64,000 nucleotides of DNA from a virus (lineage: Duplodnaviria; Caudoviricetes): IMG/VR virus record IMGVR_UViG_3300028649_000004, positions 20,392-84,391 of that record; one strand, given 5' to 3'. The stretch's first letter is position 1, and the number at the start of each line of letters is the position of its first letter. Of the stretch, positions 887-63,545 are shown one piece after another. The position numbers were made by a program, and so were the translations under genes. The notes beneath the pieces were generated by a model. It saw only the letters and a program-made list of their open reading frames with translations, searched no databases and was not told where the DNA came from.

Positions 887-1000
887 TTTTTCACTTCCTT
901 TACATTATTCGTTTAATATAATTTATTAATAACCAAATAAAACTAATATTTTAATTGCTTGTACAAGTCTGTAAACCCAGTAATAGAGCCATTCTTAAAA

Positions 1001-1546
1001 TTATAGTTTACTAAATATTACTCTTGTTATATCATCTTTATCAGCAACCTTTGGATAGAATTCTTTTAATACACTTTTTAATTCATTTAATGATTTGAAT
1101 CCATCTTGTATAGCATCTTTCTCGGTTAATTCTTCAAACGTTTTATATTCTATATTCTCAATTTTAACCATCGTTGTTTTATCTGATTTATCTGAATAAA
1201 ATTCACAATCTCCACATTGATAATTACGTTTTTTATATCTAATTGTGCTTGTTTTAATTCCTTTTTCTATAAGTTCAAAAAATTCATCAGCTAATGCTAT
1301 TCTTTCTACTTTCTTTTCCTCCTCAATTTCGTCTTCTATAACTCTAATATCTTCATTTTCTATTTTAATTTCACTAGGTTTAATACCTATCGTATCAGCT
1401 AAGTCATTAATCATTTCTTCTCTATCTACGTCAGTAACAAAAGGCTGTCCATTTTTAATAGCGGTTAAGGCTTCTTCTGTTAAATCATCTTCTTCTAGTT
1501 CCAATACTGCATCTATTACATAATCCAATCTATATTTTATCTTCAT
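1001..1546 (-). CDS. ASCH-domain protein
   Basis: C-terminal FFELIEKGIKTSTIR...ELTEKDAIQDGF..L..FYP fits the ASCH/PUA-like signature. Confidence 0.75.
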   Translation of the reverse strand: MKIKYRLDYVIDAVLELEEDDLTEEALTAIKNGQPFVTDVDREEMINDLADTIGIKPSEIKIENEDIRVIEDEIEEEKKVERIALADEFFELIEKGIKTSTIRYKKRNYQCGDCEFYSDKSDKTTMVKIENIEYKTFEELTEKDAIQDGFKSLNELKSVLKEFYPKVADKDDITRVIFSKL

Positions 1547-1667
1547 TATTCATCTCTCCTTTTATTATTTTTAACTCTACAATATATTTCAAACCATACC
1601 ATTCCACCCATAACGAAACCTATGAACCAAGCTAATAAATATTCCCACATATAAATAATTCACTTCC

Positions 1668-1874
1668 TTACTTTTCTACAATTCTAAATTCATCATCTGA
1701 AATATAGATACAATATAATGAGACAAATATATTTTCATCTTTATCAATCATTGTAATAGATATTTCATAGTTATATTCATTCTTCTCTTTTATATAATTA
1801 ACTTCTGATAATTTAAATCCATCTTTAGACAACTATGTATTTAACATTTCTTCTATTAATTTTTCTTTACGCAT
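1668..1874 (-). pseudogene. Small phage gene interrupted by an in-frame TAG (1833-1835)
   Basis: RBS + ATG; MRKEKLIEEMLNT*LSKDGF...IVEK stays open after the stop. Confidence 0.55.
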
Positions 1875-2094
1875 AGTTCATCTCCTATATTTTATTTACT
1901 GTTTAAATATTTTACTAAATCCTCAATTTTTTGAATCATATCTTCCATATCTATATCATATTCAATATGTAATATTTCTTCTTTATCATGATAACTATCT
2001 GTAACACTTATATAATCTTCAAAATCTACTTTAAATCTATCTTGTTTACCCATTTTTCACTTCACTCCTTCTAACTCTTAATGAAATATTCCTT

Positions 2095-59478: not shown

Positions 59479-59495
59479 ATACTTTGAATTGTTTT

Positions 59496-61214
59496 TCACA
59501 CTGCAACTTGTTCTGATTTCTCTATTTCTGATAAATAATAATTTAATATTATTTTAGCATCTTTTAAAGTCGAACAACTACCCTTTTTAAAACTATTTCC
59601 ATTTGCATCAACTGCAATAAAAGTTCCCCAAATATTTAATATATAATAATCTTGTGCATTTACTATAGTTATATAAGCAGTTTTTTCAACCAAGTTACTA
59701 CCTTGAAAATAATTATTTCCATTTGAAATTGATACATTAACTTGTTTTTTAATTCTCTTATATTCATATTCTTTTTTATTTGATAATACTGCATCAATAA
59801 ACTTTTTATCTTTTTCTTTTATTATTTTACCTTTTATATCCCCTAGTTTGCTTTTATATTCACTCTCTAGTGCTATTAGCTCTCTCATTAAGTTATCGTG
59901 TCTAGAATTCATTTTAGCGTCTTTACGTGCATTTCTTCCGTCTCTACCTGTTGTCATCCAGCTTGGGTTGTCTGCATTATTTCTAAGTAGTTTATAATAA
60001 TTTTCATAGTAACGTTTCTTATAACTATTTAACCATGATTTATATTTATTCTTAATTGAATTATCTTCTAACTTATCTAATTCGATAATAAATTTATTTT
60101 GATAATTATTTAAATAATTTAATATTTCTTGTTGGTGGTCACGTTCTTTAGTTCTCATAACCCAATGACCATCATTTTCTCTTTTGCTTATTTCTTTAGA
60201 TATTAGAAAATTTTCAGCGTTTATATTATCAATGTTAATTTCTATTGGTTCAACTTCTTTTAACTCTGTTGTATTGATTGTATTATTTTCTTGTTGCCCT
60301 TCATTATTTAATAAACCTATTGATTGCAAAAATTGTTTCGCTTGCTCTGAGTCTTTAGTATACCAACATTTATTAAATTTTGCCCACCTGTAACCATTTG
60401 CTTTTAACTGATTTCTAATTTCTTCACTTGGTTTGTCATTGAAATATAATTCTATTCCGTTCTTTTCTGTATTAAATTTAACTTCACAACCAATTTCATT
60501 GTTTATAGTTTGTTCTGTTGATTCTATTGTTATTTCTTGAATTGATTCAACTGCTGAAGTTTCTTTTGTTTCTGGTTCTGCAACAATTTCTATAACTTCA
60601 ACTGGTTTAGATTCTTTTATTATATCACCTTTTTTAGTTTCTATTTTATTAAGAACTTCACAAACTTTTATTATTTCTTGAGTTAATCCTATTGTGCAAC
60701 TATATTCATTACCTGAAGAAATAGTTTGACCTTTTTTTCCTAATTCCTTGATATATATTGTTTTATTTTCTCTAAATTTAACTAACCATATAGTTCTATT
60801 TCCTATGTATTTTTCTCCAAAAGTTCCAAATTTAATTCCATTAGGAAATTTAATAATTGAACCATCTTTTACTTCTTGATTTTCTGATTTTACAAATTCA
60901 ATTACTACTTCTTCTGAGTTAATTCCATTTAAATACTCATTAACTTCCTTTTTAGCTTTCTTCAAATCAGTCACTATTTCTATATTCATATTTGGGTCAT
61001 TTTTGATTGATTTTTCATTGTAAAAATAATATCTATATCCACCACTTTTTTCAGTTCCATCAAGTTTAACTTTAATTAAGCAATATTCATTTTTTACTAT
61101 TGAATATCTAGCATCTTTCTTTGTGTAATCGTGAGCTACAACATATATATCATTTTCGCCTTTAACTATAGTTCCTGTTAATTTAACAAATTGACCTTCT
61201 TGTAATTGTAACAT
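59496..61214 (-). CDS. Large multidomain early phage protein (polyvalent-protein-like)
   Basis: GIELYFNDKPSEEIRNQLKANGYRW...CWY and PSWMTTGR motifs seen in MGE polyvalent proteins. Confidence 0.55.
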   Translation of the reverse strand: MLQLQEGQFVKLTGTIVKGENDIYVVAHDYTKKDARYSIVKNEYCLIKVKLDGTEKSGGYRYYFYNEKSIKNDPNMNIEIVTDLKKAKKEVNEYLNGINSEEVVIEFVKSENQEVKDGSIIKFPNGIKFGTFGEKYIGNRTIWLVKFRENKTIYIKELGKKGQTISSGNEYSCTIGLTQEIIKVCEVLNKIETKKGDIIKESKPVEVIEIVAEPETKETSAVESIQEITIESTEQTINNEIGCEVKFNTEKNGIELYFNDKPSEEIRNQLKANGYRWAKFNKCWYTKDSEQAKQFLQSIGLLNNEGQQENNTINTTELKEVEPIEINIDNINAENFLISKEISKRENDGHWVMRTKERDHQQEILNYLNNYQNKFIIELDKLEDNSIKNKYKSWLNSYKKRYYENYYKLLRNNADNPSWMTTGRDGRNARKDAKMNSRHDNLMRELIALESEYKSKLGDIKGKIIKEKDKKFIDAVLSNKKEYEYKRIKKQVNVSISNGNNYFQGSNLVEKTAYITIVNAQDYYILNIWGTFIAVDANGNSFKKGSCSTLKDAKIILNYYLSEIEKSEQVAV

Positions 61215-61348
61215 ATCAATCTACCTCACTTCAATTATTTTAATTTGTTTACTTGTTCCCTATGTATCTATTATAAGTCACGACTTATATATCTGTCAAT
61301 AACTTTTTTAATAAATTAATAGGATTATTTAAATATATTTTTTATTGC

Positions 61349-61546
61349 TTATAGATTGTTATATTTACGTGCTTTAACTTCTTTTATTAATTCCTCAATA
61401 TCCTGTATATCTTCAAATGTTGCTTTATTCTTAATAAAACTTTTACAAGCTGATTTACTTTTTGTATAATTAACTTTATCCTTGTTCTTATCTTCCCATG
61501 CCTTAACTGCTTGTAATTGTGCCTTAGATGTTTTTATACCCTCCAT
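61349..61546 (-). CDS. Small basic putative DNA-binding protein
   Basis: TSKAQLQAVKAWEDKN...SACKSFIKNKATFEDI pattern of a common Firmicute MGE family. Confidence 0.5.
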   Translation of the reverse strand: MEGIKTSKAQLQAVKAWEDKNKDKVNYTKSKSACKSFIKNKATFEDIQDIEELIKEVKARKYNNL

Positions 61547-63545
61547 TATTTAAACCTCCTTACATGGTCTTATATAGTCTTTATTTGCTTATATAATTAT
61601 AATAGTATTGTTACATATTTGTAAAGAAAAAGAAGCTTCTCAGCCTCCTATCTTATTAATCAATAAACCCTTCTAACATTAATATTATTCCATATAACGC
61701 TTTTCTTTTTTCCTCAATTGAATTTGTATCGTTTAAACCATTAAAACAACTTCTATAATATTCTAATACTTCTACTGCTTCATTATTGTTTATTTCATTT
61801 ATTAAGTCGTTCTTAAATTCTTCAATATTACCTTTGTAATAAAATACTAACCCTTCTTTAAAATTGCTTTCATATTTTACTATTTCATTTACTACCGCCA
61901 TATTATTTTTCTTCATTTTAATCGACTCCTTTAATATTAATTAATTTATTATGTAAGTAGGTTATATTCTATTTAATATATAACCATGAAAATATTTTAG
62001 CTTTAGCAACTTGATCTTTTAACATTCTTTGTAACTCTTCTGCTTTAACTTCTTTGATTGTTCTATCCTTGTAGACTATAACTGCCATAAATATCATTCT
62101 CCTTTAAATTTATTAATTTGTTTTACTTGTTGCTAAGTTCCCTTAGCTGATAATATAATTATAAGTCATGACTTAGATTTTGTAAAAGTTAATTTAAGGT
62201 TATTTGGGATTGTTTATAACAAATTAATAGAGTTATACTTTGTTTATCTCTTAATATCTCCGTTTTACTATATTTTTAATTTTATTTTATCTTAATTTAT
62301 TGATAAAAGAGTTGTTTTAAGTAGTCTGATTTAAGTTTATTTACTGTATAATAAAAGAGATTGTATTCCCCTACAATCTCTTAATAGTTAATTACACATA
62401 TATTCACACATAAATATTATAGTATCAATATGTTCTTGTGCTTCTTGTTCTGTATTAAATGGTATTCTTTCAAATTTCATTATTAAGCTATTAAATATAT
62501 AATACTTATCTTGTATCTGCTCTATATTGTAGTATTGTTTCATACCTTTCATTGTGCTACCTATTAGAATATTTCTGCTGAATCTGATTCACTAATAGCT
62601 TTTGCAAATAATTCTACACAATTTTCATGTAAATATTGTTTTTGTTGTATTGTAGTAATACCCACATCTTCTAAAGTATAACACATAATTGCTATTTTGC
62701 CCTTTCGAATTTCTTTTGTACACCAAGAACATATTTGATTTTTTCTTACTCTTATTGCTCTAGCTGTTCTATAATCTTCTCCCTTATGTAATTTTTCGCC
62801 TAGCATTAAATAATTCATTTTTATCATTTCCTTTCTTATAATTAATTTAATATATCATAAGAGAAGATTTTAAACTCCTCTTATATGTTTTTATTCCAAT
62901 CCCATTTATTGCCGTTAGTTGTGTTTAATATTCTTTCCATTTCTTCAAATGTCTTTACTTTATTATTATTTACTTTGTATCCATTAGCTCTCAAATCTTT
63001 AATAAAATCACTTTTAGTATTATATTCACTATCCACTCTTATTAATTCATTGTCTTGAGTTATAACCATTGCACTATATTTCATAATTAACACTCCTTAT
63101 TTAATTTATTAACTTGTTTTGTTTGAGTTAGATATTGCAAGAGACTAACTGTTCCTAGCTTACGATTTTGTTAAGGTATCCACACCTATGAGAGTTTATT
63201 AAGCTCTTTGCTGGTCTTGGTTTCTCTTGTTACACAATATCTATTTCTTTCCTTAATTTATTATCTCATATATTCATACTAATGTCAAACATTATTTCCA
63301 TTAATTTGTTATTATTTTTAAATTTATTTCTAGTATTGCACTAGATTAATATCGTTTGTTGTATGCCTTGATTGTCTTAGACATGTAATTTATTTGTTAA
63401 TATTATATTATCATTTTTACTGGTATATGTCAATAAATTAATATAATAATATTCATATAAAAGGTGGTTTTTATTTGGTTCTCATTCTCAATTATATCTG
63501 GATATATAAAGAAAAGGATATATAAAAATATATCCTCAATCCCTT

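Follow-up and report, generated by a model that had tools for sequence, protein, structure and literature searches.

Gene-boundary palindromes with position-specific six-base centres in a clade of large phages: possible core sites of a phage-encoded tyrosine recombinase

The window analysed here is a stretch of 64,000 nucleotides of phage DNA, i.e., bases 20392–84391 of one virus contig of 84,391 bp (G000; IMG/VR record IMGVR_UViG_3300028649_000004), and the element in question is a short palindrome, TAAAA-N6-TTTTA, which recurs between its genes. From comparison of the sequences, we propose at about even odds (a probability of roughly 0.5) that these palindromes are core sites, each specific to its position, at which a phage-encoded Xer-type tyrosine recombinase would exchange genes in register. 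The enzyme which acts on them would presumably be the product of the gene at 41527–42444. The observation which carries this proposal is that the 6-bp centre stays unchanged between corresponding sites of two related genomes while the palindromic arms drift and the adjacent genes are mostly unrelated. In its wider form, to which we give slightly less than even odds, the proposal describes a natural genome-wide scaffold of heterospecific sites, with approximately 60–80 core sites per genome, generic arms, and a unique, conserved 6-bp address at each site. The sites may also have a role in expression alongside the one in recombination.

The comparison was made with G001, one of four IMG/VR relatives of the contig (G001–G004, 115–147 kb, of which G004 is complete with terminal repeats), and a cognate is defined as the colinear G001 site with the same 6-bp centre. 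Among sites with perfect arms, 13 centres are identical between G000 and G001 (0.9 expected), and one-letter centre variants show no excess (5 vs. 11.4 expected). When one arm mismatch is allowed, 17 identical 16-mers are found, all 17 of which are colinear. Pairs with one difference are colinear in 14 of 21 cases and pairs with two differences in 12 of 106, where chance gives 7.4%, and in 19 of those 26 near-identical colinear pairs the differences are confined to the arms. The other seven differ in the centre, which is as many as chance would give; all of them include a site already paired with a better partner, and five fall in the open-ended last interval. Over the 36 cognate pairs, whose order is perfectly colinear, the centre is changed at 0 of 216 positions and the arms at 25 of 360. 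If changes were spread evenly over the 16 positions, the probability that all 25 would fall in the arms is about 8e-6 by hand calculation. The rule that a site may have at most one arm mismatch disfavours arm changes and therefore does not bias the comparison toward this result. An earlier reading of the window from its letters (the sequence-only reading) had taken the centre to be a variable, free spacer. The centre is instead site-specific and invariant between cognates, so that a Tn916-like tolerance of unlike spacers, which that reading had invoked, is unnecessary.

In the window, 32 of the 65 non-coding sites have a G001 cognate, as do 16 of the 21 perfect sites. The conserved unit is the 16-mer, and identity ends at its edges: past the left edge the identical run continues for a mean of 1.04 nt and past the right edge for 0.91 nt (0.67 and 0.79 nt at unrelated sites), and at most sites the cognate identity is limited to 16–19 bp. 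Between the 15 identical cognate sites of the window, 16% of 59,056 nt aligns with the cognate G001 interval, and 22 of 123 genes have a homologue there, with none in 5 of the 14 intervals. The interval from 26814 to 28530, for example, holds 6 genes in the window and 5 in G001, and 0% of its DNA is alignable. The proteins adjacent to the 13 perfect pairs mostly have no blastp match, and the palindromes form the largest class among the unique conserved non-coding islands of G000 vs. G001.

This brevity of the shared sequence bears on another explanation, in which the palindromes are short conserved linkers, perhaps regulatory, which are joined by general or short-homology recombination (e.g., Erf-type annealing) or by copy-choice. 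The 16–19 bp of identity at most cognate sites is little for homologous recombination. In addition, a mismatch should impair annealing to the same degree whether it lies in an arm or in the centre, yet the arms alone vary, and the explanation leaves the conservation of a non-functional 16-mer amid unrelated flanks without a cause. On the other side, joints do fall at the sites, breaks occur at gaps without sites too, as a general process would give, and an ERF-family protein is annotated in LIBA6276, a relative from Clostridioides difficile. There is also a precedent in the PeSL repeats of T4-type phages, which, in the accessible part of PMC2839356, are regulatory repeats that mediate modular shuffling with formation of mini-circles. 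On balance, we consider the linker explanation quite unlikely.

Individual sites of the window which enter the comparison, all of them unstranded, are as follows.

938–953: perfect site; in the G001 cognate, centre kept and one arm position changed
2887–2902: one-mismatch site; colinear G001 cognate with the same centre and two arm differences
4178–4193: perfect site; identical colinear 16-mer in G001, neighbouring genes without homologue
5405–5420: perfect site; identical colinear 16-mer in G001
6743–6758: perfect site; in the G001 cognate, centre kept and one arm position changed
9278–9293: perfect site; identical 16-mer in G001, where a blastn match begins exactly at the site
10391–10406: one-mismatch site; in the G001 cognate, centre kept and one arm position changed
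11099–11114: one-mismatch site which overlaps a stop codon; in the G001 cognate, centre kept and two arm positions changed
11510–11525: one-mismatch site; 16-mer identical in G001, mismatch included
12777–12792: one-mismatch site; 16-mer identical in G001
14484–14499: one-mismatch site with the repeated motif TTAATAAATTAATAGAAG after it; centre kept in the G001 cognate
16669–16684: perfect site; in the G001 cognate, centre kept and one arm position changed, flanks homologous
21167–21182: one-mismatch site; G001 cognate with the same centre
23470–23485: perfect site overlapping a stop codon; no G001 cognate found
26814–26829: perfect site, absent from the sequence-only reading; 16-mer identical in G001
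28530–28545: one-mismatch site; 16-mer identical in G001
33792–33807: perfect site; 16-mer identical in G001, downstream proteins just 37% identical
39021–39036: one-mismatch site; G001 cognate with the same centre
40260–40275: perfect site; 16-mer identical in G001 and G003, neither flank homologous
41309–41324: perfect site; 16-mer identical in G001
43055–43070: one-mismatch site; G001 cognate with the same centre
43858–43873: one-mismatch site; G001 cognate with the same centre
44471–44486: perfect site after a T-run hairpin; in the G001 cognate, centre kept and one arm position changed
45836–45851: perfect site; in the G001 cognate, centre kept and one arm position changed
46423–46438: one-mismatch site overlapping a stop codon; 16-mer identical in G001
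47768–47783: perfect site; 16-mer identical in G001, neighbouring genes without homologue
50874–50889: one-mismatch site; G001 cognate with the same centre
51278–51293: one-mismatch site; G001 cognate with the same centre
51803–51818: perfect site upstream of a sigma-A-like promoter; 16-mer identical in G001
53374–53389: perfect site in the early-promoter region; no G001 cognate found
53832–53847: perfect site in the early-promoter region; no G001 cognate found
54854–54869: perfect site in the early-promoter region; no G001 cognate found
55866–55881: one-mismatch site; G001 cognate with the same centre
56696–56711: perfect site in the early-promoter region; no G001 cognate found
58326–58341: one-mismatch site; G001 cognate with the same centre and two arm differences
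62304–62319: perfect site; 16-mer identical in G001
63458–63473: perfect site upstream of a TTGACA-type promoter; 16-mer identical in G001

A second comparison used four syntenic loci of 32–43 kb from big phages of C. difficile. Across these genomes, 33 pairs of sites have a common centre (1.65 expected), with homologous flanks on both sides in 4 pairs, upstream alone in 10, downstream alone in 6, and on neither side in 13. The orientation of the centre is shared as well, forward matches between genomes numbering 26 (6.8 expected) and inverted ones 5 (5.2 expected). When pairs are instead anchored by a homologous flank, 20 have identical centres, 3 have centres with a one-base difference, and the remaining 8 have unrelated ones. 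Two cases of gene gain or loss are bounded by sites. In AR1086-1 (L070), a 4.4-kb segment with seven annotated genes lies between the centres CAATAG and CAAATG; LIBA6276 lacks the segment and has CAATAG, ES-S-0107-01 lacks it and has CAAATG, and the flanks match in both. An open reading frame (ORF) of approximately 190 bp lies between the centres TCATGG and TGTCAG in two C. difficile phages, and it is missing from a third, in which both sites are 8 nt apart, and from a fourth, in which one site is left. The idea in the sequence-only reading that accessory genes are cassettes gained or shuffled at these sites thus survives in part: cognate sites are kept between unrelated genes, and gains and losses in C. 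difficile are site-bounded, but gene gaps without sites also break.

The palindrome itself is far more frequent than composition predicts. The window has 25% G+C and a strong strand bias, essentially every gene being carried by the minus strand. It contains 21 perfect copies vs. 2.99 ± 1.63 expected from 100 dinucleotide shuffles (largest 7), and a scan over gaps of k = 0–15 against 100 third-order Markov sequences gives a sole peak at k = 6 (21 vs. 2.6), all other gaps having 1–6 copies vs. 2.4–3.0 expected. The swapped layout TTTTA-Nk-TAAAA has no peak in the window across the same gaps. Chance or base composition as the source of the sites is ruled out by the shuffles together with the gap scan. 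The enrichment at a spacer of six over other spacers, which the sequence-only reading had anticipated, is therefore present, with the peak at six alone. Every one of its 20 perfect coordinates is right, although a further perfect copy at 26814 was overlooked, and its 22 near-copies with 1–2 mismatches divide into 18 with one arm mismatch and 4 with two (18048, 18784, 24503, and 48613). The intergenic bias which it expected is also found, all 25 perfect copies of the 84,391-bp contig being non-coding. Copies with one mismatch in the whole contig are non-coding in 51 cases and coding in 26, despite about 72–75% coding DNA, and of the 148 perfect copies in a set of five related genomes, 138 fall in non-coding DNA.

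Within the gaps, the site has a preferred place. In the five-genome set it usually starts 0–20 nt past the preceding stop codon, which it overlaps in 29 cases, and mostly ends 20–50 nt ahead of the next start. A stop codon within the right arm (plus strand), as reported earlier for six sites, was confirmed at 11099, 23470, and 47520, and follows from the ORF ends at 18048, 18784, and 46423. Around half of the gaps of at least 30 nt hold a site with at most one mismatch, in both genome arms. A single array of accessory genes, as the sequence-only reading had it, is not what is seen, since the sites extend across the whole genome of the clade, on both arms.

The anatomy of the element was derived from an alignment of the 148 perfect sites of five genomes in coding-strand orientation, to which the counts in this paragraph refer. 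The consensus is y-C-n-n-W-TAAAA-nnnnn-A-TTTTA-W-n-n-G-R-A, with a weak outer symmetry (C at −4 in 47 of 148, G at +19 in 78 of 148). Because of this weak symmetry outside the 5-bp arms, the element is probably roughly 10+6+10 bp, though its outer positions are only weakly conserved and show no conservation between cognate sites. None of the centres is palindromic (3.7 expected), and no centre is repeated within G000 or within G001. No −35/−10 signal surrounds the palindrome. Pairing within the flanks and the centre is no more frequent than chance, and no hairpin extends beyond the five A-T pairs; recognition as duplex DNA is thus more likely than recognition as a hairpin.

An action of the element in RNA, as a hairpin for termination, processing, or translation control, would suit its place between stop codon and ribosome-binding site in the transcribed strand and the U-run which the right arm forms. 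However, five A-U pairs and a 6-nt loop make a very weak stem, to which neither flanks nor loop add pairing, one-sided arm changes are tolerated without compensation, and the genuine T-run hairpins, where present, sit upstream of the palindrome. We find this explanation barely credible. An identity as a hairpin or terminator was rejected for lack of covariation. Centromere-like (parS) sites, targets of restriction, methylation, or homing endonucleases, and IHF/HU sites were considered as well and are not favoured here.

The layout of inverted 5-bp arms around a strict 6-bp gap is that of a tyrosine-recombinase core site, as the sequence-only reading had recognised. In the Cre, Flp, and Xer systems, the arms need binding alone, and the 6–8-bp overlap must match between the two partners. 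Strand exchange by a tyrosine recombinase is favoured here because it predicts drifting arms, an invariant site-specific centre, and unrelated DNA at the edges, whereas an arm-reading protein, an RNA stem, and annealing do not predict an invariant centre with drifting arms. The lack of palindromic centres, the lack of repeats within a genome, and the preserved forward orientation fit sites which are directional and mutually exclusive.

In the mechanism which we propose, each element would be a gene-boundary junction composed of two generic A/T arms and a 6-bp centre serving as the positional address. Recombinase subunits would bind both arms, and two sites would pair when a related phage or plasmid-prophage co-occupies the cell. 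Strand exchange over the 6-bp overlap would succeed solely between like centres, a dependence which we infer by analogy with the systems above. A single exchange would give a crossover at a gene boundary, while exchanges at two addresses would swap the genes between them in register, the order being kept and the content replaced. The non-palindromic centres would set the orientation, and because centres are unique within a genome, no deletion between sites would be expected.

The candidate enzyme is encoded in the window.

41527–42444, minus strand: predicted 305-aa Xer-type tyrosine recombinase, candidate enzyme, with R, K, H-x-x-R, H, and Y in place

The sequence-only reading had called this recombinase intact, and it is indeed of Xer type with a complete catalytic set. 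It matches Pfam PF00589 at 115.7 bits and has a SAM-like N-terminal domain (PF02899); its best NCBIfam models are XerC, XerD, and XerA, all of them under the equivalog cut-offs (XerC 190 vs. 335). XerA and XerD are the nearest solved structures, and in the alignment to them the catalytic residues (R, K, H-x-x-R, H, and Y) are all present. The models for integron integrases score far lower (TIGR02249 57.8 bits vs. a cut-off of 265; NF011946 31.5 vs. 435), and, as attC-like folding or pairing beyond the 5-bp arms is lacking too, the integron-like array suggested earlier is not supported. Counterparts with open frames of 318–322 aa are present in G001, G002, and G004; no close relatives of the 305-aa protein were found in viral contigs, and metagenome contigs gave one at 25% identity. 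The site at 41309 adjoins, on the transcriptionally downstream side, a 65-aa ORF that comes after the recombinase gene. A second Xer-like tyrosine recombinase of 552 aa lies outside the window (contig bases 16087–17745, L001); its catalytic domain matches the models in separate pieces, which suggests an insertion inside.

The gene content of the contig includes primase, DnaB, homing endonucleases, methyltransferases, and several tyrosine-recombinase-like genes, and no close DNA match to it was found among deposited phages. The DNA polymerase of the clade has its nearest relative in a big plasmid-phage of C. difficile (47% identity), and a 56% relative of one window protein was found in a metagenome-assembled genome of Bacillota. 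The gap-6 peak recurs in G001–G004, with 28–34 copies vs. 1–6 for the control pattern, and in the C. difficile phage pCD1602_4 (21 vs. 4). Five further contigs are more weakly enriched (7–14 vs. 0–4), and a distant clade which includes a complete 227-kb genome shows no enrichment (9 vs. 8). Since the sister clade G006–G009 is without palindrome enrichment, the motif system is clade-specific. The relatives found for clean mapping of insertions and deletions are either 100% identical to one another or distant. The 378-aa protein of window 13306–14442 is shared with G006–G009 (genomes of up to 227–230 kb), at 52–60% identity.

The gaps which hold the palindromes also hold promoter-like signals. 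A second repeat, AATAAATTAA, occurs there in 150 copies vs. 31 expected; it is orientation-specific and peaks 31–40 nt ahead of start codons, as TATAAT does. Its full form is approximately TAAATAAATTAATAGAAG(AAAG), with more than 20 copies in G001, and may be a phage-specific promoter or the box of a MrpR/SroF-like repressor. In the window, it is seen near 44102, 24950, 23362, 49524, 55724, 51235, and 25460, as well as in many other gaps. The motif ATAAATTA follows 54 of 138 palindromes within 17 nt, at preferred spacings about one helical turn apart. From 44 to 63.5 kb of the window, strong sigma-A-like promoters of the form ...TATTAATTTATT...AGTATTGAC(A/T)-N17-TATAAT are located downstream of the palindrome. 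This promoter cluster (44000–63600), in which some gaps share a repeat of approximately 60 nt (e.g., upstream of 53832, 54854, and 56696), looks like an early region at the upstream end of the direction of transcription. No match to the sigma-70 region 2 family was found in G001–G004.

Such signals would be expected if the palindrome were the binding site of a phage regulator, i.e., a dimeric repressor or activator or a MrpR/SroF-like protein, with a genome-wide role in transcription. The joints at sites would then be a by-product, since most of each short gap is taken up by the site. The occupancy of about half of the longer gaps, the placement between stop and start codons, the helical-turn spacing of ATAAATTA with its peak at −40 to −31 from starts, the early-region sites upstream of sigma-A-like promoters, and the kinship of the clade to the plasmid-prophages of C. 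difficile all agree with this. So do two proteins encoded in the window, which are candidate rival binders.

34187–35338, minus strand: 383-aa MrpR/YopR/SroF-like protein with a predicted tyrosine-recombinase fold, candidate regulator and rival binder
19128–20333, minus strand: 401-aa protein; MrpR N-terminal core-binding domain at 32.5 bits (cut-off 27)

The 383-aa protein has an MrpR N-terminal core-binding domain, and its homologues carry PF22822 and PF22823. Its structural model (mean pLDDT 85) gives as top Foldseek matches YopR (8bj6, 8bpz), MrpR (8a0a), and SroF (9rd5), so that YopR/MrpR of SPbeta and SroF of phi3T rank above true recombinases, at modest TM-scores of 0.35–0.49. A search of the two MrpR-like proteins against solved structures by sequence gave nothing relevant. 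The two proteins are paralogous, and the arginine conserved in the first catalytic motif seems to be replaced in them, as judged by eye. The C-terminal end of the 401-aa protein has a weak NUMOD-like DNA-binding motif of homing endonucleases. A 293-aa ORF (window 22136–23017), judged by eye from its translation, has a GIY-YIG-nuclease-like N-terminus and a C-terminal part like that of the 401-aa protein.

There are precedents for such a regulator. In the accessible portion of PMC3029335, the Cluster A mycobacteriophages have 24–34 stoperators per genome, i.e., tens of short non-coding sites across a temperate phage genome, as in the present case. In SPbeta, the binder has a tyrosine-recombinase fold, as do the similar proteins of the window: the available text of PMC10516654 describes MrpR as a catalytically dead master repressor of recombinase fold which binds the repeated SPBRE element in ten promoter regions. 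SroF, according to the part of the preprint at hand (bioRxiv 10.1101/2025.11.27.690993), binds as a monomer and reads 24 of the 26 bp of a long asymmetric box, which suits TAAATAAATTAATAGAAG better than a palindrome with a variable centre. From the same partial sources, both stoperators (13 bp) and SroF boxes are asymmetric, read over their whole length, and follow one consensus, whereas the arms of the palindrome are generic and its centre differs from site to site and is conserved between genomes. An arm reader would predict kept arms and a free centre, the opposite of what the cognate pairs show. Furthermore, the presence of a site upstream or downstream of orthologous genes is not conserved between genomes, a site being present at the orthologous downstream gene in both genomes in 3 pairs and in one alone in 12. 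In G004 and in C. difficile phages, the ribosome-binding site often lies 3–12 nt after the palindrome, which leaves no room for a promoter there, and the palindrome therefore cannot generally be the upstream element of a downstream promoter. We regard the regulator explanation as unlikely, though by no means negligible.

Several observations weigh against the recombination-site proposal. The distances to stop codons and ribosome-binding sites, the promoter-like motif, and the asymmetry of the site relative to transcription (A at position 10 in 102 of 148 sites, T at position 5 in 53 of 148) hint at a role in expression. The cognate evidence in the window comes from one relative, G001, and centres shared by G000 with G002, G003, and G004 number 1, 1, and 0, vs. 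0.5–0.8 expected. Among the anchored C. difficile pairs, the centre is changed by one base in 3 of 31. Strong conservation is confined to 5 bp of each arm, and the identity of cognate sites does not reach the outer arms. Matches by blastn end at sites no more often than at random non-coding positions: a first comparison gave 3 ends vs. 2.8 expected within 8 nt, and a second gave 2 vs. 1.9. Gene neighbours in the C. difficile loci have lost their adjacency at 36 of 42 informative gaps which hold a site and at 56 of 75 which hold none, a weak difference, and the sites are thus not the sole joints. Finally, a tyrosine recombinase is present in G007, a relative without enrichment of the motif, so that the presence of the enzyme does not track the motif.

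With respect to known systems, the integrons to which the sites were first likened share genes in the same orientation, an inverted repeat after each gene which may overlap its stop codon, and a tyrosine recombinase nearby. However, attC sites are 57–141 bp long and folded, whereas the present sites are palindromes of duplex type, 16–26 bp long, in an array which is genome-wide and in which no attI or Pc arrangement is seen, although no search aimed at one was made. The nearest known system is instead that of the dif modules of Acinetobacter plasmids, which the present one resembles in having many copies of a simple site per replicon, inverted arms around a 6-bp centre, discrete gene modules which are bounded by sites and occur in differing contexts, and a presumed enzyme of Xer type. 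The dif sites, in the accessible part of PMC6449649, are of 11+6+11 form, the inner parts of the arms being palindromic and conserved while the outer parts vary; the roughly 10+6+10 bp of the present element, with its weak outer symmetry, come close to this. Here, in contrast, the replicon is a phage genome of about 120–147 kb with approximately 60–80 sites at about half of its gene boundaries, and the recombinase is phage-encoded. Moreover, the arms form a perfect palindrome, pointing to a single recombinase species and not to XerC together with XerD. The specificity of each centre for its position, with colinear conservation between relatives, implies that genes are replaced in register instead of being shuffled freely. 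The PeSLs are similar in that repeats bound small variable genes and modules are exchanged there, as the available text of PMC2839356 has it. They consist, however, of sigma-70 promoters with terminator stem-loops and recombine with one another by homology, whereas the palindromes share 10 bp alone, each with its own centre, and contain neither a promoter consensus nor a stable stem-loop.

The combination of shared arms and unlike centres has its counterpart in cassette exchange with lox and FRT sites, which is an engineered laboratory method. Heterospecific lox or FRT sites have identical arms and different spacers; like sites alone recombine, and the cassette is swapped in register. We know of no natural genome-wide set of heterospecific sites, although no literature search was aimed at this point. 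No description of the present motif was found in PMC5786514, on the big phages of C. difficile, in the part of the article available, whose text does not contain the terms promoter, palindrome, or inverted repeat. Among the papers listed for phage mosaicism, inverted repeats, and gene boundaries, none has a title or opening of an abstract which describes such sites, and an earlier description elsewhere is possible.

Two other features of the contig may be mentioned. Directly downstream of the site at 33792 lies a 251-aa ORF (window 33004–33759) with a MazF-like endoribonuclease domain (E 3e-7, under the family cut-off). Outside the window, an HNH homing-endonuclease gene (contig bases 5192–6382, L001) is missing at the same place in G001, and the insertion is bordered by approximately 75 nt which match one G001 stretch twice.

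Phage mosaicism is usually attributed to illegitimate joining at random with subsequent selection, or to homologous exchange within conserved genes. If the proposal made here is true, the combination of extreme mosaicism in gene content with preserved gene order would be explained, and these phages would possess a built-in form of recombinase-mediated cassette exchange. Phage mosaicism would also become testable with one enzyme and short synthetic sites, and the palindromes could serve genome engineering as naturally occurring recombination sites which are mutually exclusive. The big plasmid-phages of C. difficile carry many accessory genes, and if a recombinase uses the sites, large temperate phages of Bacillota, including these plasmid-phages, would have a dedicated means of ordered gene exchange.

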